This document shows, in pieces, positions 6,294 to 64,000 of a stretch of 64,000 nt of DNA. Source of the DNA: a virus; IMG/VR virus record IMGVR_UViG_3300023243_000009, positions 1 through 64,000 of that record; one strand, 5' to 3'. The notes below the pieces were generated by a model. The model did no database searches. It saw nothing but the letters and a program-made list of their open reading frames with translations, and was not told the DNA's origin. How positions within the stretch are numbered: the first letter of the stretch is position 1; each line of letters begins with the position of its first letter. The translations under genes and the position numbers were made by a program.

Positions 6294-9038
6294 TTATAAA
6301 AGCCATTGAATGCTTTCATTTTTACCCCCAATTTCTTGTGTGTAGGGGTTGGTTATACTATTATGTGAATATACCCCACTATAGTTTGATTTATTGGATT
6401 TTATCCCACCTAATGTTGCTCTAGCCATATCTAAACTCTGTTGTTGGAATTTTAATGAAGTATCTCTCAGAAACATACCGACTGAGAATGGCATAACCAA
6501 GTCATCATTGTAGCCACTTTGGGCTTCTGGTCTTCCATTCTTCCAAACGAACACTTTCATCTCTTCTACTAAACGTTTTGAGCGAATTGTTACTGATCTA
6601 TCACCAACAAATTCTCTGAATTTATTAATGCAAAGGGGTCTAGTTCTCATTGACATTGTAAATCCTGGGATCATTTCACTATTACCTTCATAAACACGAA
6701 GATATGATTCTGCCGTAATTTGGTCTCCTTTTGGTGAGTGGTATAAATTATTATACTCTCTCTCTTGTATTGCATCTAGAGTTGCCCATCCAATATTAGC
6801 ATTTTCTACTACCAACATCCCATTATTATATTCTGTAGCTAAACCTGTGAGGAAATAACCGAATTCTTTTGGGGGTAATTGGCCTTTATATTCTGCAACT
6901 TGTGTATTTGTTTGTATATCTATCACATGACATGCCGAGAAATCTTTACCATCTCCCCGGGCAACATCTGCTATAATCATATATTCTCTAGAGTAGTCAG
7001 CTGGTTCCCAAATCCATAAGTTTTGGTCTACACCTCTTCTCTCTAATGGTTCTTTTACAGTTGTTGAACTTATAAATTCTAACCATTCACTATAAAATAC
7101 AGTATCACCTGATGTGTTAAAATCACAGTCACAATTATGTACTATTCCATATTCTGTTACATATGTATGAGTATTTTCTATTTCTAGGTTAAATACTTCT
7201 AATGTTCTAGGAGAGGGGGTAAGTTTTAAACTTGTAAGAGGTTCAGATATAAATTCAAAATTACTATTTGAATTAGATTTCCCTATAGTATTAATTCTAC
7301 TCCAATCCTTTATCCTTTTACTAAATATCTTTTCATCCGAATTTATAATACTGTTAGTCCAAGTTAATGTAAAGTTATCTCTCCAACTATCCTTATCAGG
7401 GTTATTTGGGTTTTGTGATTTACCTTTTTTTAAGGTGACATTATGGATTCCTAAGATATTAGAAATATATAACATATCATATATTAATTTTTCGGATGTA
7501 AGGAGGAGTTGGACATTATATTCAGATTTTAACATCCCATCTCCAACTAACACCCCATCAAGTATACCTTTTAAGGTTTCTTCATTAGATGTAGAATATA
7601 AAAATTTACTTATATGTTTATTATAACTATATTTTCCCCCTTGAATACATAATTTTATAAAATTGTGGAAAATTTGATCTTTTATATATAATTTACTACT
7701 ACCCTCCCAAATTTTAGAAGTATAATATGAAAAATTTGTTATATTAAATTTCTCAGTTAATATTCTTTCAATTTCTAAAGGAAAACCTTCTCTTTCTGTC
7801 TTCCCATTAAATGAAAACTCAACTTTATTTTTAGCTAAAGATCCTTCTGATAAAAAACAGCCTATTAAAAATCCTAAATCATAATCAATTTTAATAAATC
7901 TGTTAATTTTACTAGTTTTTGTAAGCCATATAAATTTATCATCAATTTTTAAAGGGAATGATTTTGGAGAATTAGAAATAATATAATTTGAAAGATCAAT
8001 AGTTTTACATTCAACTTTGTATTCATCTACTTTAGGGAAATACTTAACCTTATTATTAGAATCTATAATTGAACCTACGTCTTCCCATTCTCCTAACATA
8101 TTGAGGAATGGGTGGTTTAAGGTGGTATATTTTTGAATGTTATTTAATCCCCCCTTTATTTCTATGGATTTGTCTGTAATATGGGAATGTTTTTTTATTA
8201 CTTTATTATAAGACCCATCATGGCTTAATACTAAATCTCCCAATTTAATATTTTTTATATATTGAGGGCCAAATTTTGTATATATTATTGTATCTTTACT
8301 AAAACATTCTTGTGCTGCTAGTCTAGGATCACCTAATAAGGTATCTTGAGCATCTCTCCATGTTTGGTCTCGTTCAGGGTGAACGTACCATGGAAGTTTA
8401 ATTGGTAAGAAATCGTTTTCTCCGGATTCTGCTTTAACCCATGTTTGATGAAACCAATTACCAGTACCATATGGGGTAGATAGTACAATAGCTCCACCCC
8501 CCGTAGCTAGAGTTTGCTGTGCAGAAGCCCACGTTTCACCAATGTTATCAATGAAGGCTGCTTCGTCAATTATTAGTAAAGATACTGCTTCTGAACGTGC
8601 TGCATCGGCATTTGAGGATTTTGCTTGTATTTTCGACCCATTAGAAAGTCTAAGGGATAATTTGTTATTTTCTACAGAGTCTACTTTTAACCATGAGGGT
8701 AAGTTTTCCCACATAAATTGTACCTTGGTTACTAAGTTTTTAGCTGTTGCTTGTGTTGTTGCTAGTGCTAATATATTTTTATCCTTATGGAAGGTCATTA
8801 ACCAAAGACCATAACCTGATACTAGAGTTGATATACCTAATTGTCTAGATTTTAATATAGTACTATAATCGTTGTTTTGAAATAACGCTAATACTTTTTC
8901 TTGAAAGGGGTACAGGTTAAACTGTATACGACCCCGTTGTGGGTGTTGTATATAACAGTATTTACGCATAAAATGTATGGGGTCTTTACAACATTTTAAA
9001 TACTCATGTCTAATTATTTTTTTAAAATCTTCAGCCAT
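6294..9038 (-). CDS. terL: Terminase large subunit (T4 gp17-like) containing an intein; probable start at 9038 (MAEDF)
   Basis: LYPFQ Q-motif, KSRQLGIST Walker A, LLIIDEAAF Walker B, STPYG motif, nuclease IIADVARGDGKDFS and GYNDDLVM; ATG overlaps the upstream stop (TAATG). Confidence 0.95.
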   Translation of the reverse strand: MAEDFKKIIRHEYLKCCKDPIHFMRKYCYIQHPQRGRIQFNLYPFQEKVLALFQNNDYSTILKSRQLGISTLVSGYGLWLMTFHKDKNILALATTQATAKNLVTKVQFMWENLPSWLKVDSVENNKLSLRLSNGSKIQAKSSNADAARSEAVSLLIIDEAAFIDNIGETWASAQQTLATGGGAIVLSTPYGTGNWFHQTWVKAESGENDFLPIKLPWYVHPERDQTWRDAQDTLLGDPRLAAQECFSKDTIIYTKFGPQYIKNIKLGDLVLSHDGSYNKVIKKHSHITDKSIEIKGGLNNIQKYTTLNHPFLNMLGEWEDVGSIIDSNNKVKYFPKVDEYKVECKTIDLSNYIISNSPKSFPLKIDDKFIWLTKTSKINRFIKIDYDLGFLIGCFLSEGSLAKNKVEFSFNGKTEREGFPLEIERILTEKFNITNFSYYTSKIWEGSSKLYIKDQIFHNFIKLCIQGGKYSYNKHISKFLYSTSNEETLKGILDGVLVGDGMLKSEYNVQLLLTSEKLIYDMLYISNILGIHNVTLKKGKSQNPNNPDKDSWRDNFTLTWTNSIINSDEKIFSKRIKDWSRINTIGKSNSNSNFEFISEPLTSLKLTPSPRTLEVFNLEIENTHTYVTEYGIVHNCDCDFNTSGDTVFYSEWLEFISSTTVKEPLERRGVDQNLWIWEPADYSREYMIIADVARGDGKDFSACHVIDIQTNTQVAEYKGQLPPKEFGYFLTGLATEYNNGMLVVENANIGWATLDAIQEREYNNLYHSPKGDQITAESYLRVYEGNSEMIPGFTMSMRTRPLCINKFREFVGDRSVTIRSKRLVEEMKVFVWKNGRPEAQSGYNDDLVMPFSVGMFLRDTSLKFQQQSLDMARATLGGIKSNKSNYSGVYSHNSITNPYTQEIGGKNESIQWLL
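7134..8306 (-). mobile_element. Intein (391 aa) with LAGLIDADG homing endonuclease in TerL
   Basis: Begins CFSKDTIIYT after ...LAAQE; ends ...TEYGIVHN followed by Cys; internal GFLIGCFLSEGS and GILDGVLVGDG LAGLIDADG-type blocks. Confidence 0.93.
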
Positions 9039-9634
9039 TATTTTCCAATTTTCCAATACATACTACCCGATAAAACAGGTTGGAAATTAGGGTTAATTCC
9101 TATCCCCAAACCATATATTTGTTTTTTCTTTGTTCTTAACAGCAACTTACCACCTAAATAATTAATTTGATTTGCTCTACCCATTAAACCTAAACCCCAA
9201 TAAAATTCTCGTTGGTTGGTATACACTGTATTTGTAACCGTTGTAATCGGTATTAAAAAATTAGTCGCCACACTGCGTGAGAATATTGTATTGCGCGTTA
9301 TAGTATCATTAATTACGGCATAACCCATGGTATCTATGTGTATAGTGTCATTATAAACATACTTGGTATAGTAATCTTTTAAAATTGCTAAGGTGTCTAC
9401 TAATGATGGTACTGTGTCTGTTCTAGTTATTATTTTTTCTTTCCATTTAGGAATATATTTAGGGGTATATTTAATAATTGTGTCATATTTAACTTCAACT
9501 TTTGTTATTGTTATAGGTTCAGATATGTTTACCCCACTACCACCACTACCCCCACTACAACTACGCATTATGAAGATAATACCAATTAATATTACTATCA
9601 GTAAAGTTTGAATATTTTTAAAGAAGTCCTTCAA
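9038..9634 (-). CDS. Membrane-anchored protein (N-terminal TM helix; possible spanin or lysis accessory)
   Basis: Hydrophobic LLIVILIGIIFIM, then a Thr/Asp-rich DT-repeat region and a beta-rich C-terminus; function inferred. Confidence 0.5.
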   Translation of the reverse strand: MKDFFKNIQTLLIVILIGIIFIMRSCSGGSGGSGVNISEPITITKVEVKYDTIIKYTPKYIPKWKEKIITRTDTVPSLVDTLAILKDYYTKYVYNDTIHIDTMGYAVINDTITRNTIFSRSVATNFLIPITTVTNTVYTNQREFYWGLGLMGRANQINYLGGKLLLRTKKKQIYGLGIGINPNFQPVLSGSMYWKIGK

Positions 9635-34605: not shown

Positions 34606-37600
34606 TTATTTTATTACTCCTTTATCAATTAAATCCGTTACTATTGAAGATCCACTATTTTTAATATAATCCGTTGGAAAAGTTGGATAAATTATACCAT
34701 TAGCTTCAGACCCAGATGATTCTGCTGAATATGGGAATTGGGTATCTAAGATGAAACTGCTAGCTTTTGGAGTAAATCTTCGTATTAAAAAGAAATCTTT
34801 ATTTATACTTTCAGGTACTTCACTATCTAGTACTATTTTTATTTTACCTATTCCATCCACTATATTATTTTCAGGTGGTACTACTGATTTGATAATGTAA
34901 GTATAATTTTCGTTATTTCCAAATCGTATTTCATCTCCTGGGAAAAATTCTATAGGTGATGTAATTTTTGGGAATTGTGTTCCAGATGGTTCTACTCCAC
35001 TATCAAAATATTCACTAGGGCCGGGGACATATTTAAGTGGGCCCTGGTAGAATTTGCCACCATATGCTTCATTTATATTTGAAGAAGACATTATTAGTAT
35101 ATTTTTATCTGTAGAGTTTGGATATACCCAAAATGGAGAAGTTCCTTTATTGTCTCCTGCTAATAAAGATGTTCTTTCTCCAATTGTAGAAAGTTTAGAT
35201 GGAAATTTAAGACCTTCATAATCCGCGGGATATAATATATTGGGTCCAAATTTCTCTTTTTTAGGTTTTTGTATTTCTATTTTTACTTTAAAGTGTATAG
35301 AATCATTAGTTTTAAATAAAAATTCACCACTATTTGCTTTTATAACAAATTCTAAACCATTAATATCCCCTTTGAAAAAAGCACCACCTTTACCTTGAGT
35401 ATATACTCCTTTTTGTGTTAAAAATGAATTTAGAGGTACATTTTCAATTAATGCATAGTAACTTCCTCTTTGGGGGTTGTAAGCATTTATTGTGTCTGTT
35501 TTATATAAATTTCTTTTGCGTGTAAATGTGGTAGAGATTGGGCTAACAAATCTTATTAAATTATTAATTCCTGAACCTATTATGCTACCAGCATTAAATG
35601 GTTCTTTACCTGTTCTATGTACTATTAAACTTATATCTTCTAAATTAAATTCTACAGGAGTACTACCACTTACCATTTGAACATCAAAGGCTAATTCAAC
35701 TCCACCTGATTCATTTAAGAAACTAGTAGCAAATGAAGTTTGCATTGAAATACGTTGTGGGTTTTTATCAACACTTTCGCTGCCGTTGTCTCCAAATATT
35801 ATACTACCATTTACTGTAGTATAAGGATCTATATAGTTTGAACCAGCATTAAAAGGATCAATAACAACTTCTTCCGTAGGGTTTATTATTTGTGTATAAT
35901 TTGATGTTTTGCTGGTATATATTATGTTATTATTATCATAAGAGGATGTACCTTGAGCCGTGAAAGAATAATCTACGATTGTATTTATATCATTGTTATC
36001 ATACATACTAATACGTCCTGACCCTGTTAATGGGATTTCAAGAGCATAACCTGCACTTGAAGTTTGAGAATATAATATAGGGGTGGGTTTTGAAGCTAAT
36101 TTATAAATAGGATAACTATCATCTAGTTCCTGAGCATATTGGCTTGAAGATATAAAACCGATTGATATAGGGTTAGATATAGGGAATGTTTTTTCTAATA
36201 TATTGACACCATATCCCTCTAAACTTGGAGGTACGGCGTTGCTTTGTTGGTCTAATAAGTATGTTAATTCTAAAGATATTTTATCGTTTACTAAAGGATA
36301 TAAATCTTTTATGTTTTTAAAATAACCAAAATAAGCATCTTTTAATTCAATTACAGGGTTTTTACCATAAGTATCTACATCTTTAATACTCCATATATTG
36401 TATTGATTCCCGGTTGTTTTAGTACCATTATACCTAGGTCTAATAGATCGGGTGCTAGTATAATTTGAATCTGGGGTTTGAGCCTTATCTGCTGTGTTGT
36501 TTAATATTTGATCAAAATTAACAGGTGAAATTGAACCACTGATGTTATTATAACTGACATCCATTATAAATGAGTTATCTCTAATATCATTATAGTTATT
36601 TAATGTTGGTTGACAATCTAAAGCTAAATTAAATGGTAAAATACCTTCACCAAAATATGAAGGAATTATAAATCCACTTGAAGTTGGGATTTTATAAATA
36701 TTATTTGTTGGTGGTGATGATAAAGGAGCATATATAGATGAACTAGGTGATATGCTCATAGTATAACTTGTAATAGCTAAACCGGAATTAAATGTTGGTT
36801 TTATGACTTCTACAGCCATTCTAAATACATCATCATATTCAAAGGGGAATTCAAATGAACCTGTTAAAGTCACGTTCCCAGAAGATGATGAGTTTGGTAC
36901 TATAAATTGTTGGGATAATATTACATCCCCCATTTGGGTTGGGTTATCATAATTTCCTTTTTCTATTAATAATGAACCAGTTAAATTGTAAGCCCCGTCC
37001 TCTGAAGATGTTAATGCTTGTGTGATTAAAATTTTAGATTCTAAATCACCTGTTTCTAAAAAAGCAACATTAAAAGATTCATTATTTGTATCAGAATTGT
37101 AATCATAGTTACTCATTGAATATTCAATAAAGTACATATCATCTATACTATTTATATCAACTATATTAATAGTTGGAGAGTCAGGAAATATAAACTCTTT
37201 ACCTCCAAAAATAGGTTCTAAAATTGGGGTATCAGATGATGCGATAGTACTTACTGTACCAGTAGAATTAATCTTTTTTAAATGAGCCTGGATTTTGATT
37301 TCTGGGTGTCTACCCCCAGGTGATGAGAAGGAAGAGGTGAATCGTTGTGGATTAGATGGTGTTCCTTGGAAAGTAGTAGAATTAAAGGTATTTGGGATTG
37401 ATAAATATGAATTATTACCACTAAACCTTGCGTAAACTGACCCGTTAAAGGTAGATATGCGGTATTCAAAACTAGGTTCGGGGGATTTTAGTACTATTCT
37501 AAAAGCCATATGATTATAAGTAATACCAGAAAAAGTAGGTGGTTCTGGGATTTCGCCATTACTAATAACTATTTGTTTATTAGCATTGGATTGATAAATT

Positions 37601-40600
37601 TGGGGTAGTGTATACCAATTCTGGGTATTATTTGTGCTTCCGTATGCACGAGTTTGGATAGAAGCAGTATAATTAGATATACTAGCAGATATATTAAGAT
37701 TATATTTTATATAAATGTCATTTAAACTATCATTGTCTCTTAAAAAATATTCTTCAACACCATCATAAGATACTTCAATAGCTCCATCTTGATATACACC
37801 TTGTTTATTATTGGGGGAAACGGAACTTGACCAATTTACAATCGTGTCTTCAGGAAAAGATGAGGTAAAATTAGCATTTGGAGTAGATGACATTGTAGTT
37901 AAATCACTCCCAGATAATGGAGTCCAACCCGGAATAGCGGGAGATAAAATTCTAGGGGTTCCACCAATTTTTAATCTTGGAAAATGGAAATCTATAGATG
38001 CTGTTCCTGCTATTTTAATTTTGGGGTGACCTCCAATTTGATTAACAGATGAACCAGAATCCCCAGGGATTTGATTATTGTACTCTGATTTGAAAAAAGT
38101 ATTACTTACATCTACAGTTAAGGGTGAGGGTTTAAATACACCACTTTCAACCCCAAAATTAGAAAATGTAAAATTTTGATCCGTTAATGTAGCTCCGGTA
38201 TATTTGGATGATGAGTGGTAAATATTATTTTCGGAAATTATAACCCCCCCAGTTCCTAGAGAGGATGCGCTATATGATATGGATGCAGAAAAAAACCAAG
38301 GAATATTTGAAGTTCTTTTTGGATTATATGAACCAAAATTAAACTTTGATATGTCTGAAGTTATATTATTTTGGGGTGTTAAATCAGATCCGGAGTTAAA
38401 GAAAGATTGGGAATCATTCCCTGGATTATCCCAACTCCAAAAATATTGTTTTTGATAGTTATCACTTCTAATAAAATTACCCTGTTGGAGATTGTCATTG
38501 CCTACACCTATAGAGTCAGAGGTTCTATAATCCCCACTGACATTTAAACTCCAATTTTCTGAACCGGCACTAGTTGATGAAGTTATAGGGTAAAATTCAG
38601 TTACAATATCAGTAGTTAGGTCGGTAGTAGATGTTTTTATGTTATCTCCTTGAGTTTGTGAAATTCTTAATAAAGTACTATTTGCAAATTCAGTTACACC
38701 CTCAATTACATATTCTGCTACATTATTGTTGCTTCTAACAACAGCATCGGGAGTGATCCATTTAATTGAATTAGAATTAATTAAAAAATCTCCAATAGAT
38801 TTATTATTAATATCTTTATTAGATAACTTTATATATTTTACTTTAGCAATAGGAGGAGAAATAGAAATTTGTTCGGAAATGATCCACGCATCCCCGGATT
38901 TTGGGGAATTTTTGTTAAGTAAAATTTCAGTTTCGGTAGTAGTACCTTGAAAATAAGTACCATCTCCACTTGTTAAACTAAAAACAATAGGATTAAAAGA
39001 AATGGAATTATCTGTTACTTTTAAGTAAGGACCACATCCAGGGTTTAGGATTTGATCTGTTACTATTAAACTAGACCCACTAAATTCCCCATTATATAAT
39101 TCTCTTTGATCATGTATTTCTATATTTCCATATCCTACAAATTCTCCACTATTATTAATAGTATTAGATATTGAACCCTCAATAGTTTCACTATAGCTTT
39201 GAGTTAAGTTAAATTGATTATTTAAACCATATGCAGAGGCTGAGGGTGAGGTTTGTAAACCATTATAACGTTCTAAAGATCCCCCAGTTCCACCTGTGAA
39301 TTTATATATCGAAGAACCACCATTAGCTTCATATTGACCCACATCACCGGAACCTGTACTATAGTTTCGGGATTGGGGTTTTATTGAGCCACTATAAGTT
39401 TCATTAGACCAAGATACTTGAGCAGGTCTTTGTTTATTTCTTTCTAAAATATGTTGTTTTACTACTACACCCGAGCTTAAACTTGTACGTGCGGGAGTGA
39501 AATCTTTAATCATCTTAAATAAAGAATTATCAAAGAATTTTATTAATCTAATGAAATCAACAACGTTATAACTGTTAATATATTTTTCAAAATAAGCGTT
39601 TCTTAATGTATCTAAAGCAGGATAACTACGTTCATTCGAAGATATATGTCTAGGGTCTCCAATATAATCACCTATGTTAAAATACCCGAGTTGTGCATTA
39701 ATGTCATCATTAATTTGATCTTGAGGTGAGAATGCTACCTCTAAATAATTTACATCAGGTGTGTAGCTTGAACTTACAAAAGATTCTTGTTGTACTGATT
39801 GGAATGGGGATAATACTTTAATATCTCCATTTGACCCCGATGGAGATTCTGCAATGTCGTTACCTATAAGAGCAATTTTATCTGTTACTCTACTTTTTAT
39901 ACCTGATGGAACTTGGTCTTGGTATGTGTTTTCTATATTAGATACCCATTCAGCATTATTAATATAGAATGAACTATTGCTAGAAAAAGATTGGGTAATT
40001 TGAGATAAAGATCCTGTTACTTTTGGATGTATAGATGTTCTACTTTCTGTATTCAATTCCGTTCCTAAATCTGCTCTAAAAAATAATTCATTAGGGGTAC
40101 TATTAGTTGTAGTACCTTCAATAGAATAGGGGTTTAATACAAAATCATGAAAAGTATTTTGTGGTATAGCAGCATTAAAATATCTTAACTCTTGGAATGA
40201 ACCAGAGAAGGGTTGATATACATTAGAACCCAGAATAACATTTGTATCTTTATTTAAGAAACCTACCGTAGATTGTGAATAATGTGAAGAATCATATCCT
40301 GAAATATAATCTGACATATTAAATCCTACCCTACCATTAATTTCATTGGCTACATATAAAGTAGAGTTTGTGTTGGTATCCCCCATCGTAACTTGTACTG
40401 ACCACCAATCTTGGTTAAAGGCAGGGAAGTATATGCTAGAGGATATTGTAGGGTCGCTCGCATAAGCAGGTATCCATTTTAAAGTACCCCAAGTGTCATA
40501 TTGGTCAATAGATGAACCCGAATATGAACTACTAACTAAGCCTGAGCCTGTGTATTCTAATATTAGATTTCCCCCATCATCTGTTGACCATAACGATTGT

Positions 40601-42582
40601 GAATATCTAATATCGGTACTAGCTACGTTATTAATAGCTGGAGGGATACCTGGGGTTTTGAATCTAAGTTGAATAGTTTGTGGGGTTCCACCTCCGAAAT
40701 TGACATTTGAAAGTAAGGAAGATGATAAAAAGTTGTCTGATGTTTCTCCTGTATTAAATGCGTAGTTAAATACATTTTGTTTTAGATCCCAGTCTTGAGA
40801 CTCATTTCTATCTTTACCCCCAAATTCGTTTACTCTTAAAATAGTATCAGGAATACCATATGAAGTAATTAATGCTCTTAAACCAGCTACTGTACCTTTA
40901 GTTTTAAGTAAATATGGTAAATTATGATAAATACGTTTATAAATGCGTTTGTTTACATCACTTAATGGCACTATATCATTTGAAGCAGAAATTTGAGTAT
41001 CAACGTATTCATACCCAGAAGGAGTAGGTAAACTACTTGTAATTTCAGGGAAGGGAAATAAACTACCTGAAGGAGTTATTCCTAAAAATGCGGAGTATAA
41101 ATCATCATTATTAAAGTTATTAGAATATAGTTTAACTCCAAAATCTTTAATGGCATCAGCTATTAAATCTTTAGATATACCATAATCTAAACGGTTATCA
41201 GCATTAAATTTATTTGTAATGTCTTTAGTATACAACCAAATATTATCATAATGTTGAGCCACCATATCAATAAAAAGTTCATACTTTATATTTTCAGAAT
41301 CTTCTTTTAAATACTCAGGAATGGAATTATATAGTCTATCTGGGTTTTCTTCATCAAATAAAGAAGCGGATAGAGCTAACCCACCATAATTGACATTACT
41401 TTCATCTGCACTACCTAACCAAGTTAAAACTTCTAGGTTTTCTGTTGGATATAAAATAAAGGGAGGGGTAGAGTTAGATTTTGGGTAGGAATAACTTGAA
41501 CCACTATTAAAATACATAAAATATTCAAAACCATCAAAGTTCTGGATTAGTGTGTCTATGTTTGAATTTAATAGACCAACACTTGAAATATAAGATACAG
41601 AAGAAGTTGTAGCACTTGTTATATTTGAAGATATAGTATTTAATTGGTTACTATAATTTTCAATTAGTCCTACTTTATAATAGAAATTTTCTAATCTAGT
41701 TAATACTGATGAGAAATGAGTGAAATCATTGAAATCTTCATAATTAACGTTTATGTTAATTTCCTTAGTATTTAGTAAATTTTTAATTTGGTTAACTGAA
41801 CTAGTTACGTTTGAGTTTAATAATTCACTATATGAAAAAAGTTGACTAGAGTTCCCAGTTTCTTGTTTTACGTTTAAATTGAAATTAGGACCTGCTATAA
41901 ATTCAAAATCATCTTCAATAGTAGGAGTAAAGGGGAAATCAACTTGATATGCCTGGGGTGTAGATAATATTTCAACAACCCATAATTGTGATTTTAAATC
42001 AAATTCCTCAGGTAAGGGTTCGTATAATTTTATTAGAACCGTAGGGTCTTCAGTATTATTATTATCTAAGGATATATTATTAGCTATTACAATTTTATTA
42101 TCTCCAAAATTAAGATAAAAATCAGCAAAATAGGGAGTATTATCTCTATACCCTATAAATTCATTAGTAGAAGATACAATAGAAGTATTAGTAATAGTAT
42201 TACTATCTAACCTAATTTCAGTTCTATCAGAGGAAACTTCAGATATAAAATATGTTTCATTTATGTTAGAACTTAATCTTTTTCTATAAAAATTATAAAC
42301 GATAGAATAAATACCTATATCATATCCTAAATTTTCAAGATCTAATTGAGGGTTTAATAATACATCTCCTTGTTTAACATTAAAAGATGTTAAAGGGATA
42401 GTACTTGAAGGGTATATTTTAGTTTGATTTTCATCATATATATAAAACTCTATATAATCCGTTGATGATGAAAATTCTGTGTCTAAATCAGACACGGCTA
42501 TTAACTCGACATCAGAAGTTTTATAATCTTGAACTTCAAATGTAGTTGGGTCTAATTGTAATATTGTAATTTCCTCGTTCAT
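34606..42582 (-). CDS. Very large virion structural protein (probable baseplate wedge), 2658 aa
   Basis: Uninterrupted S/T/N-rich beta-type ORF in the baseplate cluster; RIYKRIYHNLPYLLKTKGT segment. Confidence 0.75.
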   Translation of the reverse strand: MNEEITILQLDPTTFEVQDYKTSDVELIAVSDLDTEFSSSTDYIEFYIYDENQTKIYPSSTIPLTSFNVKQGDVLLNPQLDLENLGYDIGIYSIVYNFYRKRLSSNINETYFISEVSSDRTEIRLDSNTITNTSIVSSTNEFIGYRDNTPYFADFYLNFGDNKIVIANNISLDNNNTEDPTVLIKLYEPLPEEFDLKSQLWVVEILSTPQAYQVDFPFTPTIEDDFEFIAGPNFNLNVKQETGNSSQLFSYSELLNSNVTSSVNQIKNLLNTKEININVNYEDFNDFTHFSSVLTRLENFYYKVGLIENYSNQLNTISSNITSATTSSVSYISSVGLLNSNIDTLIQNFDGFEYFMYFNSGSSYSYPKSNSTPPFILYPTENLEVLTWLGSADESNVNYGGLALSASLFDEENPDRLYNSIPEYLKEDSENIKYELFIDMVAQHYDNIWLYTKDITNKFNADNRLDYGISKDLIADAIKDFGVKLYSNNFNNDDLYSAFLGITPSGSLFPFPEITSSLPTPSGYEYVDTQISASNDIVPLSDVNKRIYKRIYHNLPYLLKTKGTVAGLRALITSYGIPDTILRVNEFGGKDRNESQDWDLKQNVFNYAFNTGETSDNFLSSSLLSNVNFGGGTPQTIQLRFKTPGIPPAINNVASTDIRYSQSLWSTDDGGNLILEYTGSGLVSSSYSGSSIDQYDTWGTLKWIPAYASDPTISSSIYFPAFNQDWWSVQVTMGDTNTNSTLYVANEINGRVGFNMSDYISGYDSSHYSQSTVGFLNKDTNVILGSNVYQPFSGSFQELRYFNAAIPQNTFHDFVLNPYSIEGTTTNSTPNELFFRADLGTELNTESRTSIHPKVTGSLSQITQSFSSNSSFYINNAEWVSNIENTYQDQVPSGIKSRVTDKIALIGNDIAESPSGSNGDIKVLSPFQSVQQESFVSSSYTPDVNYLEVAFSPQDQINDDINAQLGYFNIGDYIGDPRHISSNERSYPALDTLRNAYFEKYINSYNVVDFIRLIKFFDNSLFKMIKDFTPARTSLSSGVVVKQHILERNKQRPAQVSWSNETYSGSIKPQSRNYSTGSGDVGQYEANGGSSIYKFTGGTGGSLERYNGLQTSPSASAYGLNNQFNLTQSYSETIEGSISNTINNSGEFVGYGNIEIHDQRELYNGEFSGSSLIVTDQILNPGCGPYLKVTDNSISFNPIVFSLTSGDGTYFQGTTTETEILLNKNSPKSGDAWIISEQISISPPIAKVKYIKLSNKDINNKSIGDFLINSNSIKWITPDAVVRSNNNVAEYVIEGVTEFANSTLLRISQTQGDNIKTSTTDLTTDIVTEFYPITSSTSAGSENWSLNVSGDYRTSDSIGVGNDNLQQGNFIRSDNYQKQYFWSWDNPGNDSQSFFNSGSDLTPQNNITSDISKFNFGSYNPKRTSNIPWFFSASISYSASSLGTGGVIISENNIYHSSSKYTGATLTDQNFTFSNFGVESGVFKPSPLTVDVSNTFFKSEYNNQIPGDSGSSVNQIGGHPKIKIAGTASIDFHFPRLKIGGTPRILSPAIPGWTPLSGSDLTTMSSTPNANFTSSFPEDTIVNWSSSVSPNNKQGVYQDGAIEVSYDGVEEYFLRDNDSLNDIYIKYNLNISASISNYTASIQTRAYGSTNNTQNWYTLPQIYQSNANKQIVISNGEIPEPPTFSGITYNHMAFRIVLKSPEPSFEYRISTFNGSVYARFSGNNSYLSIPNTFNSTTFQGTPSNPQRFTSSFSSPGGRHPEIKIQAHLKKINSTGTVSTIASSDTPILEPIFGGKEFIFPDSPTINIVDINSIDDMYFIEYSMSNYDYNSDTNNESFNVAFLETGDLESKILITQALTSSEDGAYNLTGSLLIEKGNYDNPTQMGDVILSQQFIVPNSSSSGNVTLTGSFEFPFEYDDVFRMAVEVIKPTFNSGLAITSYTMSISPSSSIYAPLSSPPTNNIYKIPTSSGFIIPSYFGEGILPFNLALDCQPTLNNYNDIRDNSFIMDVSYNNISGSISPVNFDQILNNTADKAQTPDSNYTSTRSIRPRYNGTKTTGNQYNIWSIKDVDTYGKNPVIELKDAYFGYFKNIKDLYPLVNDKISLELTYLLDQQSNAVPPSLEGYGVNILEKTFPISNPISIGFISSSQYAQELDDSYPIYKLASKPTPILYSQTSSAGYALEIPLTGSGRISMYDNNDINTIVDYSFTAQGTSSYDNNNIIYTSKTSNYTQIINPTEEVVIDPFNAGSNYIDPYTTVNGSIIFGDNGSESVDKNPQRISMQTSFATSFLNESGGVELAFDVQMVSGSTPVEFNLEDISLIVHRTGKEPFNAGSIIGSGINNLIRFVSPISTTFTRKRNLYKTDTINAYNPQRGSYYALIENVPLNSFLTQKGVYTQGKGGAFFKGDINGLEFVIKANSGEFLFKTNDSIHFKVKIEIQKPKKEKFGPNILYPADYEGLKFPSKLSTIGERTSLLAGDNKGTSPFWVYPNSTDKNILIMSSSNINEAYGGKFYQGPLKYVPGPSEYFDSGVEPSGTQFPKITSPIEFFPGDEIRFGNNENYTYIIKSVVPPENNIVDGIGKIKIVLDSEVPESINKDFFLIRRFTPKASSFILDTQFPYSAESSGSEANGIIYPTFPTDYIKNSGSSIVTDLIDKGVIK

Positions 42583-58167: not shown

Positions 58168-58320
58168 TTATTCTACTAATTCATTAATTTCTGTATCAAA
58201 ACAGGTATTTAGACTATCCCCATACTCGTAAGCAGCGGTTAATTTTTTAAAAGACTTTATGCCACCACGGTTTATATCTACTCCGTTACTTAAATATGGA
58301 ATTATTGTGTATATAATCAT
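58168..58320 (-). CDS. Small early protein (50 aa; not in the ORF track)
   Basis: Starts at a repeat ATG: MIIYTIIPYLSNGVDINRGGIKSF... Confidence 0.65.
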   Translation of the reverse strand: MIIYTIIPYLSNGVDINRGGIKSFKKLTAAYEYGDSLNTCFDTEINELVE

Positions 58321-58383
58321 AACCTTTATTGTTTTAATTAATTTCTATACCCGAATATACGAAAGGTTTATTGGGGAGCCTAA
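58318..58383 (-). promoter_or_regulatory. Early promoter+leader+ATG repeat unit
   Basis: CATAACCTTTATTGTTTTAATTAATTTCTATACCCGAATATACGAA...GGGGAGCCTAA. Confidence 0.9.
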
Positions 58384-58544
58384 TTTAATCTATAATATTT
58401 TACTTTATCAAACCCACCATTACTTAAAGTCCTAGTATAATGGGTTGGCTGGTACTTATCCGTTGATTGGTGATGTTTGGAGAGTACATTCATGTAAACT
58501 CTTTCAAACACCCCATCAACCTCTTCTTCAGTGATTTTTTCCAT
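58380..58544 (-). CDS. Small hypothetical protein (54 aa; not in the ORF track)
   Basis: Manual translation MEKITEEEVDGVFERVYMNVLSKHH...YYRLN. Confidence 0.5.
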   Translation of the reverse strand: MEKITEEEVDGVFERVYMNVLSKHHQSTDKYQPTHYTRTLSNGGFDKVKYYRLN

Positions 58545-58545
58545 A

Positions 58546-58830
58546 CTAGATACTAACTAATGATAAACGGGTGCGCATTGAATTGCTTTTAATCCCCTCA
58601 TAAAATCGTTTACCCCCTATTACAACATTTGAATTACGTGTTGCTAATTCACTATTAAACTCCACACTTGAAAAGTGATAATAGGGTTGTTTATTAACTA
58701 ATACTTTTAATATACTTGTTCTACCCTTGATAACGGGCTGATCTACTGTTTTAATCTTCATTCCCTCTTTTACGATTGAAGATGTGTTTTCTACTGTTGG
58801 TGATTCCGAAATTTCAAAAATGTTTATCAT
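58546..58830 (-). CDS. Early hypothetical protein
   Basis: Starts at a repeat ATG. Confidence 0.7.
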   Translation of the reverse strand: MINIFEISESPTVENTSSIVKEGMKIKTVDQPVIKGRTSILKVLVNKQPYYHFSSVEFNSELATRNSNVVIGGKRFYEGIKSNSMRTRLSLVSI

Positions 58831-58892
58831 AACCTTTATTGTTTTAATTAATTATTATACTTGAATATACGAACAATATGCTGCTAATCCAA
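58828..58892 (-). promoter_or_regulatory. Early promoter+leader+ATG repeat unit with overlapping hairpin
   Basis: CATAACCTTTATTGTTTTAATTAATTATTATACTTGAATATACGAA; TATGCTG/CAGCATA inverted repeat around the -33 element. Confidence 0.9.
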
Positions 58893-58935
58893 TATTTGTT
58901 GCAATAACAGCATACAAAATCTTTAATTTAATGTT

Positions 58936-59292: not shown

Positions 59293-59486
59293 TTTTTTAT
59301 AACCCTAAAATTTTTCTTAGGATCAATTTGGGCGTGCTTAATACCCACTATATCACCTAATCTAATAGATTCTTTAGTCCTCTGTGCTAATTGATTTTTT
59401 TTAATTTCAACCTTATTTTTAATCTGATTAAACTCATCTGGGTTTGAATTTATAATGAATTCTAACACTTCGTTTAAATTTAACAT
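59253..59486 (-). CDS. Early hypothetical protein (C-terminus probably frameshifted)
   Basis: Starts at a repeat ATG; its last ~13 codons overlap the start-less frame. Confidence 0.6.
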   Translation of the reverse strand: MLNLNEVLEFIINSNPDEFNQIKNKVEIKKNQLAQRTKESIRLGDIVGIKHAQIDPKKNFRVIKKGQELQLKIKIKR

Positions 59487-59548
59487 AACCTTTGTTGTTT
59501 TAATTGATTCCTATACCCCAATATACGAAAGGTTTCCGAGATAACCAA
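59484..59548 (-). promoter_or_regulatory. Early promoter+leader+ATG repeat unit
   Basis: CATAACCTTTGTTGTTTTAATTGATTCCTATACCCCAATATACGAA...CCAA. Confidence 0.85.
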
Positions 59549-59617
59549 ATGGGTATTAAGGGGATGACGCATGTGGGGATCATTACTATTCCAGTCACAA
59601 CCCTATTTAACATTTAT

Positions 59618-59726
59618 CTACATTTCTTTGCAATCTATAACACATTTACACCTATAATATGTGGCTGTCTATAACTCATGGTCATCTACAATATAAGGCC
59701 ATCTATAATATGTGGCTGTCTACAAC
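59618..59726. repeat. Phased 17-bp degenerate tandem array
   Basis: CTAyA starts at 59618, 59635, 59652, 59669, 59686, 59703, 59720; the 20-mers at 59652 and 59703 are identical (CTATAATATGTGGCTGTCTA). Confidence 0.75.
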
Positions 59727-61343: not shown

Positions 61344-61751
61344 TTACAATTTATATTTTTGCTTGTAAACGTTGATTAAAGAATTCCCAACTCCTAATTC
61401 TAACACTTCAGCTGTATCCGGTATCCCTACTAACTTTAGGGAGGTTATGATATAGTCTATATTTTCATTAAAAATTTTCATTTTTATTTTAGAGTTAACA
61501 CGATTGGAATTTTTATATACTAAAACTACTACTTGGTTATTGTATGGTTTCTTTTTTTCAACCAATACCTTAGGATGTTTGTACCCCTTAGGTGGTGTAT
61601 ATTCTGTTTTATATGGACCATTAGGTACTTTATGTTTATTATAATACCATTTTGATACTCCCCCTATTTCAGGTTTTGAAGGAACTTCACACATAATCTG
61701 GGTGTACTTTATTAATGGTGATTTCTCTTCTATTGGTCTGCCTTTATTCAT
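61344..61751 (-). CDS. Early hypothetical protein
   Basis: Starts at a repeat ATG; no tyrosine-recombinase R-H-R-Y pattern seen. Confidence 0.7.
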   Translation of the reverse strand: MNKGRPIEEKSPLIKYTQIMCEVPSKPEIGGVSKWYYNKHKVPNGPYKTEYTPPKGYKHPKVLVEKKKPYNNQVVVLVYKNSNRVNSKIKMKIFNENIDYIITSLKLVGIPDTAEVLELGVGNSLINVYKQKYKL

Positions 61752-61814
61752 AACCTTTATTGTTTTAATTAATTATTATACTTGAATATATGAAAAGTAA
61801 ATGTGGTAGCCCAA
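61749..61814 (-). promoter_or_regulatory. Early promoter+leader+ATG repeat unit
   Basis: CATAACCTTTATTGTTTTAATTAATTATTATACTTGAATATATGAA...CCAA. Confidence 0.9.
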
Positions 61815-61873
61815 TTTGTTAGCGGATGTATTGTTTTTTAAGGTTGTGTGGGGTACCCATCGTTGTAAAAAAT

Positions 61874-62191
61874 TTAAATATTAAGTTCTTGATAGCTTAC
61901 CTTTTTCCCAAGCAATTTAACCTCTATAAACCAGTCAACATTATTACTTTTTAAAAATTTATTCCATTCTTTTTCTTTTTGCTTATAAACCGCTTTTGTT
62001 AAGTGTTTATGCCAATTTTCAAAATTCATTATATTAAACCGGTGTTCATTAATAACTATATTTTTACTATTTGCCTCACTTAACAAAAACTTCATATACA
62101 AGTCTTTTATATTAGCTTTATCGCATTCCCAAACATTGCTAACTTCTACCATATCCCATTGTTTATCGTGTATTTGTGTAATGTATATCAT
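61874..62191 (-). CDS. Cassette 1 hypothetical protein
   Basis: Stop abuts the GTT box at 61862-61873. Confidence 0.7.
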   Translation of the reverse strand: MIYITQIHDKQWDMVEVSNVWECDKANIKDLYMKFLLSEANSKNIVINEHRFNIMNFENWHKHLTKAVYKQKEKEWNKFLKSNNVDWFIEVKLLGKKVSYQELNI

Positions 62192-62199
62192 AATTTAAA

Positions 62200-62342
62200 C
62201 TTTTAACAACAACGTACAAAGAAAATAAACTACTATTCGCTTTCCGTTGTTCATTGTTTATTTGTGGGTTGTCGGTATTTCCGACATACCTCTATTTTTT
62301 TTAATCGTTTACTTTACTTGTACAAATCCGTTGGCAGTAATA
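62200..62342 (+). repeat. attC-like site B
   Basis: AAC(62208-10)-aac-GTACAAAGAAAATAAAC ... GTTTACTTTACTTGTAC-aaatcc-GTT(62330). Confidence 0.8.
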
Positions 62343-62346
62343 ACTA

Positions 62347-62535
62347 CTAAGAGTACCATTTACCAATTTTCTCAAATTCTTCTACTACATCTTTACAATC
62401 TAATTGTTCTAATAAATCACAAAGCAATCCGTCAGCTATACAATGGCTTTTTGCATAATCCCTCTGTCCTTGTCTTTCTTTTAGTTCACTAATTACTGCT
62501 TTTTTAAAATCTAATTGTTTTTTGGTAAGTGCCAT
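62347..62535 (-). CDS. Cassette 2 hypothetical protein (probable start 62535, MALTKKQ)
   Basis: HCIADGLLCDLL...EFEKIGKWYS; stop 5 nt past the GTT box. Confidence 0.7.
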   Translation of the reverse strand: MALTKKQLDFKKAVISELKERQGQRDYAKSHCIADGLLCDLLEQLDCKDVVEEFEKIGKWYS

Positions 62536-62565
62536 TTTATTAATATTTGTTTTTAATTTATCCGT

Positions 62566-62780
62566 TACTACTGCCAACATCTTTTAAAGAAAAAAACTAA
62601 TTTATCCTTTTTAATAAACCAATTCTAACAAGTGGGTTATTGTTTTGGCTTTCAACTAATCTTTTACGATAATCTTGTAAACTTTCGTTTTTCTTTGGCA
62701 CTTTTATTAATTTTCCCATTTTTTACTTATTGTTTTAATTTATTCGTTTCTTTCCTTAAAAGGGTACGTTGTATTTAATG
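62566..62780 (+). repeat. attC-like site C (long loop containing an ORF)
   Basis: AAC(62576-78)-at-CTTTTAAAGAAAAAAACTAATTT ... AATTTATTCGTTTCTTTCCTTAAAAG-ggtac-GTT(62768). Confidence 0.75.
62597..62719 (-). CDS. 40-aa ORF inside the site C loop
   Basis: MGKLIKVPKKNESLQDYRKRLVESQNNNPLVRIGLLKRIN. Confidence 0.45.
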   Translation of the reverse strand: MGKLIKVPKKNESLQDYRKRLVESQNNNPLVRIGLLKRIN

Positions 62781-63038
62781 CTAATCTTTAGGCACATTAG
62801 CACAAACAGTTCCTTCTTCTTGGTGTGTTTGGTTAACAAGTGGATTGCCTCTTACGCTTAAATTAAATGGCTCAACATAACCTTCTTTAGCAAAATACCA
62901 TTTACCTTCATACTTAAATTCAAAACCGCTATCACGCATACAGATAGCCATTTCTTCACCATCACTTGTCTTTAATACAACAGATTTAAATACTTCTTCA
63001 AGTTGCATTATGTTTTTTTCGTTTACTGTAATTTTCAT
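62781..63038 (-). CDS. Cassette 3 hypothetical protein
   Basis: Stop abuts the GTTGTATTTAATG box. Confidence 0.7.
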   Translation of the reverse strand: MKITVNEKNIMQLEEVFKSVVLKTSDGEEMAICMRDSGFEFKYEGKWYFAKEGYVEPFNLSVRGNPLVNQTHQEEGTVCANVPKD

Positions 63039-63066
63039 TTCATTTATAATTTATAGTTAATAACCC

Positions 63067-63213
63067 GCACTAAAATACAACACCGTACAAAATTAATTGC
63101 TTGGTTTTGGTTTACTTGCGAACGTCCTCGCATCCTTTAACTTTATTTTTTATTTATTGGTTTTAGTGTTTTTTTTATCGCAACAAATCTTGTACGCGCA
63201 CGTTGTAACAAAT
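63067..63213 (+). repeat. attC-like site D
   Basis: AAC(63079-81)-acc-GTACAAAATTAATTGC ... GCAACAAATCTTGTAC-gcgcac-GTT(63202). Confidence 0.8.
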
Positions 63214-63257
63214 TATTTTTTATTAGGTTACTTTTCTGTTTGCAAATTATCGTAATT

Positions 63258-63377
63258 TCATTCCTCTTTTTCTTGGTCTGTTTGCAAAAAATCACTTGTA
63301 ACAACAACGTATAAATCATTATTACTGCTTAATGGGTTTCTAGAATAAAATTCATCTTTAAAATCTACTGGTCTCAT
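63258..63377 (-). CDS. 39-aa ORF starting in the site E loop and reading through its arm into cassette 4
   Basis: MRPVDFKDEFYSRNPLSSNNDLYVVVTSDFLQTDQEKEE. Confidence 0.45.
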   Translation of the reverse strand: MRPVDFKDEFYSRNPLSSNNDLYVVVTSDFLQTDQEKEE

Positions 63378-63433
63378 AATTAAGTTTTAGTTTATTTATC
63401 CGTAACAATGTTTATACGCATAAGTTGTAGTGC
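63294..63433 (+). repeat. attC-like site E
   Basis: AAC(63303-05)-aac-GTATAAATCATTATTAC ... GTAACAATGTTTATAC-gcataa-GTT(63424); one extra base in the left arm. Confidence 0.8.
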
Positions 63434-63442
63434 ATTAAAACG

Positions 63443-63710
63443 ACACCACAACAACGTGTATAGGTAATTATTGCCCTTGCTTCACTATCTTATAACCAAG
63501 TTCGTGCAAATCTTCAAGCAAACGAATAGTCATAGTTGTTTTAGGTGTTTTCTCAAAAAACTCATAACCTCGCTCTTTTATTATGTGCAGTAATATGTTT
63601 TGCTCTTCAGCATTTGCACCTCCAAATAATTGTTCTATCTCTTTCATAATTTATTTTATTTTAATTAAATCGGGCAAAAACTACCCATACATAAACCGTT
63701 AGCAGTAATA
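63443..63710 (+). repeat. attC-like site F (long loop containing an ORF)
   Basis: AAC(63450-52)-aac-GTGTATAGGTAATTATTGCCC ... GGGCAAAAACTACCCATACAT-aaacc-GTT(63698). Confidence 0.8.
63468..63647 (-). CDS. 59-aa ORF inside the site F loop
   Basis: MKEIEQLFGGANAEEQNILLHIIKERGYEFFEKTPKTTMTIRLLEDLHELGYKIVKQGQ. Confidence 0.6.
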   Translation of the reverse strand: MKEIEQLFGGANAEEQNILLHIIKERGYEFFEKTPKTTMTIRLLEDLHELGYKIVKQGQ

Positions 63711-63911
63711 TTAAATATCAATTGATTTAATTAATCCTTCCAGTTTTTCACGTGCGCCATCCCTAATGCTATGATAACCCCCAAGTTTGTTTTTACATAT
63801 ATCCATTGTGTTAATTAATGCATTTATCATTTGTGCTTTATCAGCCATACTAATGCTAACAACGTGTATATCACATTGCTGTTCTGTTTCTAGGTCTTTA
63901 CTTTTATCCAT
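63711..63911 (-). CDS. Cassette 6 ORF starting in the site G loop and reading through its arm
   Basis: QCDIHVVSIS is encoded by the arm and core; stop abuts the GTTAGCAGTAATA box. Confidence 0.65.
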   Translation of the reverse strand: MDKSKDLETEQQCDIHVVSISMADKAQMINALINTMDICKNKLGGYHSIRDGAREKLEGLIKSIDI

Positions 63912-63990
63912 TTTATTTAGTTTATTACTTATTAAAAATTATTGTTTATCTACTCGCAACGCTACATACACAAATACGTTATATGCAATG
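63849..63990 (+). repeat. attC-like site G
   Basis: AAC(63858-60)-aac-GTGTATATCACATTGC ... GCAACGCTACATACAC-aaatac-GTT(63978). Confidence 0.8.
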
Positions 63991-64000
63991 CTAAATGTTT

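Follow-up and report, generated by a model that had tools for sequence, protein, structure and literature searches.

The window considered here, meaning the whole 64-kb stretch of DNA that was analyzed, is the first part of a 138,667-bp IMG/VR virus record with a G+C content of about 30%. The minus strand carries every long ORF of the record. Terminase, portal, and baseplate proteins are encoded, and the record is therefore assigned to a tailed phage; it is about 85% complete. The phage, or part of it, is contained in 24 salt-lake metagenome runs, 16 of which hold at least half of the sampled words. All sequencing runs used were DNA and entered the analysis as contigs, and the related phage contigs chosen for comparison are designated L007, L018, L019, L021, L022, L155, L158, and L169. 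A 139-aa flanking gene was also used as a query for related loci; the phages recovered have only that gene in common. Searching PHROGs with ten small ORFs of the phage gave no match.

Positions 62197-64000 form the beginning of a 4.4-kb array that extends to genome position 66550 and comprises about 13 co-oriented hairpin sites, including site F, which was called by eye. In the region of 60.5-64 kb, AACAACGT motifs recur as inverted pairs, and 62.2-65.0 kb holds 6 of the 9 plus-strand copies of this motif in the genome. The sites were located with R1, a covariance model built on the phage sites, whose alignments are biased toward its own structure. Its matches within the window are confined to 62197-63991, and within the genome none lies past 66550. 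The sites far exceed chance expectation. A loose hairpin scan, by comparison, was overwhelmed by chance matches. The features of the array are listed below in window coordinates.

61874-62191, minus strand: 105-aa cassette ORF, forming one core-to-core unit with the site at 62197-62343
62197-62343, minus strand: hairpin site (R1 114 bits), cores CAAC 62207-62210 and GTTG 62330-62333, entirely intergenic, with a small inner hairpin at 62199-62255
62347-62580, minus strand: 77-aa ORF, likely start at 62535 (MALTKK..) after an A-rich leader
62565-62781, minus strand: large-loop site C (R1 E 0.0018), cores 62575 and 62771, loop of 168 nt
62597-62719, minus strand: 40-aa gene, entirely in the loop of site C, conserved small-protein family
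62781-63038, minus strand: 85-aa cassette ORF, with 9 nt between its stop and the long-spacer core of site C
63044-63133, minus strand: 29-aa ORF, start in the loop of site D, end 5 nt before the 85-aa gene, without support
63068-63215, minus strand: site D (R1 86.7 bits), cores 63078 and 63205
63258-63377, minus strand: 39-aa ORF, start in the loop of site E, arm read as LYVVVTS (..DLYVVVTS..), no support as a gene
63292-63437, minus strand: site E (R1 84.9 bits), cores 63302 and 63427
63424-63451, minus strand: bare R hairpin, that is, an empty cassette (GTTGTAGTG, 10 nt, CACCACAAC), complementary at 8 of 9 positions
63443-63701, minus strand: large-loop site F (by eye), arms 63453-63463 and 63681-63691, stem of 11 bp that includes two G.T pairs (sense strand)
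63468-63647, minus strand: 59-aa gene, entirely in the loop of site F, conserved small-protein family
63711-63911, minus strand: 66-aa ORF, start in the loop of site G, arm read as DIHVVSIS, conserved 45-aa body from Met22 (codon 63846-63848)
63847-63991, minus strand: site G (R1 95.5 bits), cores 63857 and 63981

Site structure and related host arrays

On the folding (minus) strand, a site consists of yAAC, 5 nt, a stem of 11-17 bp, an A-rich loop, the second half of the stem, 2 nt, and GTTr. The distance from core to core is 119-127 nt for most sites. Most sites thus fall within the attC range of about 55-141 nt, while site C (197 nt) and site F (about 255 nt) exceed it because genes are housed inside them. 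Site F was missed by R1 owing to its loop of about 230 nt; a site in contig L158, in which the same arms enclose another loop ORF, gave a weak R1 match (E 0.056).

The alignment of 26 distinct sites from the phage and related contigs has an R stem of 4 bp and an L stem of 11 bp, separated by an internal loop of 5/2 nt. Of the 15 stem pairs, 10 have compensatory changes, and many pairs on the sense strand are G.U. Covarying stems together with this frequency of sense-strand G.U pairs identify the sense strand as the folding strand. The core triplets AAC and GTT are invariant in the 26 phage sites and are kept in 75-76 of 76 host sites. No conserved bulged bases were apparent in the L stem, and the signs of polarity are the 5/2 spacer and the G.T pairs on one strand. 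Thermodynamic DNA folds of single sites were no better than those of shuffled sequences (z -1.6 to +1.1). The minimum-energy fold of site E contains the expected R and L stems, and in that of site G the expected hairpin is absent. The argument for a conserved structure is built on covariation.

The two-arm DNA pattern was found at no fewer than 120 loci, nearly all in chromosomes of marine Flavobacteriaceae, against a chance expectation that the authors themselves estimate at about 4 matches. R1 detected 131 co-oriented sites in 160 kb of these host loci, arranged in dense arrays. The set of 76 host sites folds as in the phage, with compensatory changes in 10 of 18 pairs and, here too, a bias of G.U pairs toward one strand. 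In each of five host genomes there is one tyrosine recombinase (open frame 373-408 aa), for which the best-scoring models are those of integron integrases and XerA. In all four cases examined, the host array starts 0.5-4.6 kb downstream of this Xer/IntI-like tyrosine recombinase, whose orientation is that of the host cassette ORFs. Compared with TIGR02249, the host recombinase aligns in two pieces and leaves model positions 181-239 unmatched, where the IntI-specific extra domain is expected. The T. piscium copy (395 aa), the sole copy scanned against NCBIfam, reached 202.8 bits with TIGR02249 (cut-off 265) and 220.8 bits with NF040815 (XerA/integron integrase; cut-off 220). Integrons are recognized by an adjacent IntI with the extra domain and a score above the curated cut-off, and the recombinase beside the host arrays, judged by the copy scanned, is not of this kind. 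A full-text literature search returned no description of flavobacterial recombinase-headed arrays.

Judged by sequence and predicted fold, the phage sites belong to the same family that bounds cassettes in these recombinase-headed Flavobacteriaceae arrays. The 138.7-kb phage record (about 85% complete) contains no match to PF00589, and a tblastn search with the host recombinase found no match in the phage or the related contigs. Likewise, 36 phage array ORFs gave no tblastn match in 840 kb of host arrays, so that exchange between host and phage would be conjectural.

Gene orientation and coding within the sites

An earlier note on this DNA held that the phage genes appear to be inverted relative to the polarity of their sites. 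Comparing ORF-to-site polarity between host and phage arrays upholds this. Of 88 stretches between host sites, 66 have their long open frame on the strand opposite the model strand and 8 have it on the model strand itself, whereas in the phage and its close relative L007 seven long frames lie on the model strand and one opposite. In hosts, the median distance from the stop codon of an ORF to the short-spacer AAC box that follows is 12 nt. Of 53 ORFs in phage arrays, 34% have their start within a site, compared with 3% of 132 in hosts (p 5e-8). Given the opposite polarity counts and the within-site starts, the inversion is considered real. Host arrays follow the attC arrangement, with the ORF of a cassette on the top strand and its attC downstream of it; in the phage, the ORFs are on the folding strand and come after their site.

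Several other identities for the repeats were considered and rejected: MITE-like elements, as the loop sequences are unrelated; RNase III-type processing as the main role, as host arrays fold antisense to their genes; and host sigma-A promoters in the arms, as TTTG/TAnnTTTG boxes are lacking.

The 40-aa and 59-aa ORFs lie wholly within the loops of sites C and F, and two others start in the loops of sites E and G and read through the arm; these four had already been noticed, and the coordinates listed above confirm them. The 59-aa loop ORF has 39 homologs with 68-98% identity. The family of the 40-aa loop ORF comprises seven cluster representatives with 48-92% identity, all of 39-43 aa save one read-through variant of 63 aa. 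Near-identical copies of the 40-aa ORF show 6 non-synonymous versus 0 synonymous changes, which counts against a coding reading. In all sites of about 215 nt that were examined, the loop contains a different ORF of 40-49 aa after an A-rich leader. It had also been claimed that stops abut the long-spacer GTT box. This is correct for the 85-, 66-, and 77-aa ORFs (gaps of 9, 9, and 13 nt), but the two loop ORFs end 5-8 nt short of the short-spacer arm, and the 39-aa ORF leaves a gap of 52 nt. The 39-aa ORF has only 13 codons past the arm, followed by an empty stretch of about 97 nt.

Frames that open at a loop ATG and continue through the arm are present in 16 of 23 phage sites versus 31 of 127 host sites (p 5e-5). 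Within the arm, GTT is read as Val in 17 instances, xxG-TTr as Leu in 16, and the third frame is used in 5. The arm-encoded motif [IL]xxVVxx proposed earlier does exist, but it is just one of two such patterns, the arm having two main frames. In an alignment of the 66-aa ORF with its relatives, all sequences share Met22, conservation is partial in the arm-encoded stretch, and the N-termini have varied lengths and no relation to one another. The conserved protein begins at Met22, just past the arm, and the loop start of this ORF is not necessarily used. The same 45-aa body is found behind unrelated loop-encoded N-termini in other metagenomes. One N-terminus on this body matches a loop ORF of L018, and another, in L158, is encoded in a site whose arms are those of site F. 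A search for viral contigs carrying the 45-aa body family found none. The possibility that shuffling could create chimeric proteins, raised earlier for a crossover at the minus-strand GTT, is borne out to the extent that chimeric frames exist as predicted ORFs, namely those sharing the 45-aa body, although block boundaries point to crossover at the long-spacer core.

The clearest reading of an arm as protein comes from a lipoprotein cassette just outside the window (genome 64775-65074), whose 99-aa ORF has its start codon in the loop. The codons for the signal peptide (..FLYTLLVVVLFTGC) extend over the arm and core, and the arm itself is read as FLYTLL. In the L169 lipoprotein (60% aa identity), the layout is unchanged and both arms are altered jointly, the two arm pairs being GTGTATAAAA/TTTTTATACAC against CGTGTATGGGAG/CTCTTATACACG. 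The proposal of the earlier note that the recombination site doubles as coding space is therefore sustained by the conservation of the loop ORFs, the enrichment of loop starts, and a lipoprotein-coding arm that co-varies with its partner arm. By the same features, the site probably serves as translation-initiation space.

Cassette boundaries and competing explanations

The units of the array can be recognized from the 8-nt extensions of the R boxes, which pair across an ORF and not within a site. The host score is 4.91 versus 2.48 for non-adjacent pairs (p 3e-21). The corresponding phage values are 3.59 versus 2.65 (p 1e-3), a weaker signal than in hosts. Mismatches in the R extensions, read on the model strand, are G.T rather than A.C in a ratio of 106:32 in hosts and 47:14 in phages. 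Across the 85-aa ORF, the extensions are complementary at 10 of 12 positions. The 77-aa ORF is flanked by a 15-nt inverted repeat (62330-62344 with 62564-62578).

Comparison of related contigs places the breakpoints at the cores. The site at 62197-62343 is common to L007, L018, L019, L021, and L022 at 96-99% identity with differing flanks, and site C has 96-99% identity to L007 and L018. The block 61859-62336, which comprises this first site and the 105-aa gene, is 99.4% identical in L007, and its limits are exactly GTTG at 61859 and GTTGGCA at 62330-62336. The neighboring 77-aa gene is replaced in L007, and its stretch is exchanged for 625 unrelated nt in relatives. Blocks shared among phage contigs have a long-spacer core at their start and a core at their end, to within 3 nt. 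In hosts, the left ends of blocks fall on the long-spacer core 47 times and on the short-spacer core 0 times, a distribution that fits the classical crossover point. Metagenome contigs diverge exactly at cores. In one contig, positions 62335 and 64539, at two long-spacer cores separated by 2.2 kb, are joined, although only 30 nt lie on the shorter side of the junction.

The locus is likely a phage-borne, recombinase-less, integron-like array of inverted cassettes, in which each site would be both a recombination element and a coding or initiation sequence. Host cassette genes occupy the strand that does not fold and terminate at the site, as in classical arrays. Phage genes all occupy the folding strand, so that each phage cassette begins with its own site. 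The leader, and often the start codon as well, would come from the A-rich loop. From there, the frame would cross the 3' arm and the core, enter the cassette body, and stop 9-16 nt before the next long-spacer core. Some enlarged loops contain an entire small-protein gene. With the loop supplying the start and the arm read in frame, the site would be a structural recombination element and a coding and initiation sequence at once. This mechanism supposes translation initiation in the loops, early transcription of the array, and action of a host Xer/IntI-like recombinase on the long-spacer core of phage sites, by which site and gene would move together.

The coding part of this explanation has to be weighed against the possibility that loop-start ORFs are by-products, extensions that arise from stop-poor A-rich loops, with the true genes starting at an ATG just past the arm and the loop acting as a 5' leader. 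The 66-aa ORF, with its invariant Met22 and its unrelated pre-arm parts of widely different lengths, is what such by-products would look like. The starts of the 105-, 85-, and 77-aa genes, 13-40 nt past the arm, and the lack of support for the 39- and 29-aa read-through ORFs point the same way. However, the lipoprotein needs its loop start, since the n- and h-regions of the signal peptide span loop and arm and are conserved in 16 aligned of 2302 homologs, and a 79-aa ORF (genome 63998-64237) has no ATG past the arm. As loop starts are also enriched 7- to 12-fold over hosts and both loop ORFs are conserved families, this explanation is considered unlikely. A role of the hairpins chiefly as RNA, controlling processing or translation in a long early transcript with recombination breakpoints as a secondary matter, is less likely still. 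It would account for a phage folding strand that is the mRNA-sense strand, for the frequent G.U pairs, and for start codons within loops, but the host family folds antisense to its genes and is tied to a recombinase, and Rfam has no match in the window at 57-64 kb.

The recombination part faces another alternative, namely that the phage sites are relics or portable homology, shuffled by homologous recombination of the phage without a site-specific recombinase acting on phage DNA, in the manner proposed for promoter-stem-loop motifs in T4-type phages. No recombinase is present in the phage record, identical 126-nt sites occur between differing flanks, and phages show a fainter cassette signature than hosts do. 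Moreover, one body is found behind different loops, which crossover at the long-spacer core alone cannot yield. Against this, block ends lie within 3 nt of a 4-nt core and are not spread over the conserved arms. The phage R extensions also still pair across the ORF, with a compensatory change between GTTA..TAAC in this phage and GTTG..CAAC in L155, and the full covarying structure is kept in phage sites. This alternative is therefore regarded as somewhat doubtful.

The inverted integron-like array thus remains the preferred explanation, and it invites an extension that is offered only tentatively. Flavobacteriaceae phages might hold a mirror-image cassette pool in which the 5' hairpin is a portable leader and N-terminal exon, and enlarged loops shelter or spawn micro-protein genes. 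Exchange at the arms might join different loop-encoded N-termini to one body through an arm-encoded linker, a form of prokaryotic exon shuffling. The inverted polarity might also silence phage genes in host arrays and vice versa.

Comparison with known systems

In the textbook view, an integron cassette is a promoterless gene followed by a non-coding attC site. Here, a site of the attC kind leads the gene and carries its start or a whole small gene, and constraints of structure and of coding act on it together. If translation from the loops is true, a recombination site can provide both expression signals and protein sequence, which would explain how a phage without a recombinase could trade ready-to-express accessory genes. 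It would also point to a cassette system of Flavobacteriaceae and their phages with a recombinase that scores under the curated cut-off for integron integrases. Because of that score, these arrays would probably not be recognized as integrons by surveys built on the presence of a classical IntI.

The closest likeness is to integron attC arrays and to clusters of attC sites lacking an integrase (CALINs). The likeness extends to co-oriented imperfect hairpins, AAC/GTT cores, an unpaired spacer, a variable loop, and core halves that match across each cassette. The host arrays resemble integrons in adjoining a tyrosine recombinase, and the phage array resembles CALINs in having none. A CALIN is defined by two or more co-oriented sites close together without an integrase, and the phage has about 13 in 4.4 kb, with no PF00589 match in its record. 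There are three differences. The host enzyme lacks the IntI extra domain and scores below the integron-integrase cut-off; the asymmetry of the sites appears to lie in the 5/2-nt spacer and not, as in attC, in extrahelical bases of the L stem that mark the recombining strand; and the phage genes lie on the folding strand, start within the site, and are read through the arm. Integrase-less attC clusters of phages are already published, as CALINs in virulent phages (Qi et al. 2023, PMC9892861), and the inverted layout is not; the sections of that paper considered here mention neither an inversion of genes with respect to the site nor gene starts inside it.

Two other systems share single aspects with the array. 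The first, like the phage array, has small early genes in a plastic region, where a repeated leading stem-loop marks the mosaic boundaries. It consists of the PeSL (promoter-early stem-loop) mobile regulatory cassettes that Arbiol et al. in 2010 reportedly described in T4-type phages. In PeSLs, a consensus early promoter is coupled to the stem-loop ahead of each ORF. PeSLs differ in that they reportedly act by homologous recombination and are not known to have a recombinase-tied host counterpart. In addition, no promoter was identified in the sites of the present array, and inspection by eye found no host-type TTTG/TAnnTTTG boxes in the loops. In class 1 integrons, short ORFs of attI1 (ORF-11) and translation through attC hairpins have reportedly been described (Hanau-Bercot 2002, Jacquier 2009). 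There, as here, the recombination site also aids translation of the neighboring cassette. However, the class 1 site stands 3' of the preceding cassette, and its ORFs are incidental and short, whereas the phage site appears to carry the leader and N-terminal codons of its own gene, or the whole gene.

Fusion and alternative pairing at hairpin sites

The 45-aa body, the conserved protein starting at Met22 of the 66-aa ORF at 63711-63911(-), also occurs as part of a longer reading frame. In two of the loci compared, L156 and L157, a longer upstream ORF is joined to it in frame across a bare R hairpin, that is, the core-box stem of a site, and the stem-loop portion of the site is absent at the fusion. 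This hairpin reads CACTGCTAAC-AAGT-GTTAGCAGT and precedes the ATGGCTGATAAA start by approximately 35 nt.

A second pairing is offered by a short hairpin with two copies, which share 90% identity:

Short hairpin copies (loop 18 nt)
window 62199-62255
genome 66400-66455

The short hairpin reuses the AACAACG arm of a full site and pairs it with the nearer CGTTGTT. This pairing, inside the loop of the site at window 62197-62343, is an alternative to the full site, and its spacer polarity is the opposite one.

Other repeats and genes of the phage

Further features of the window include two other types of repeats and a large terminase subunit.

Features in the window
58301-58386, 58811-58896, 59467-59552 and 61732-61817: second repeat family, four copies, each directly 5' of a minus-strand gene's ATG
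59617-59718: overlapping direct repeats, period 17/34 nt, TCTATAAC..ATATGTGGCTG
6294-9056: large terminase subunit, 920 aa

Repeats of the second family are approximately 50-86 nt long, and on the sense strand they read ..TATATTC..GTATAATAATTAATTAAAACAATAAAGGTT followed by ATG; they look like promoters or leaders. AACCTTT...AAAGGTT arms flank one copy. In the first (58301-58386) lies a short stretch that matches Flavobacterium phage vB_FspM_immuto. The overlapping direct repeats, located in a stretch with no convincing ORF, resemble iterons.

In the large subunit, matches to terminase profiles are confined to residues 11-251 and 673-876; this points to an inserted element, for example an intein, in the unmatched middle. 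No PHROG match was found for the 2658-aa ORF (34606-42582).

Array edge and related arrays

Two genes associated with arrays, one phage and one host, are listed below.

Array-associated genes
genome 66550-66969 (L008:9550-9969): 139-aa gene, upstream end of the array
L152:11916-12638: Tenacibaculum piscium, 240-aa protein encoded by the first cassette downstream of the recombinase

The 139-aa gene recurs at 68-87% amino acid identity in phages that have nothing else in common with the present one, and in the compared locus L010 it is directly preceded by a site matching R1, the covariance model built from the phage hairpins. The Tenacibaculum protein carries a Fic-type motif (HPFQDGNGRVGR). 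R1 scores are identical between IMG/VR contig 2897660185_000001 and Polaribacter sp. IC073 NODE_15 (L006 and L076). The former is a prophage, or phage DNA within a bacterial assembly, and its array has the phage polarity: the strand that folds carries small ORFs.
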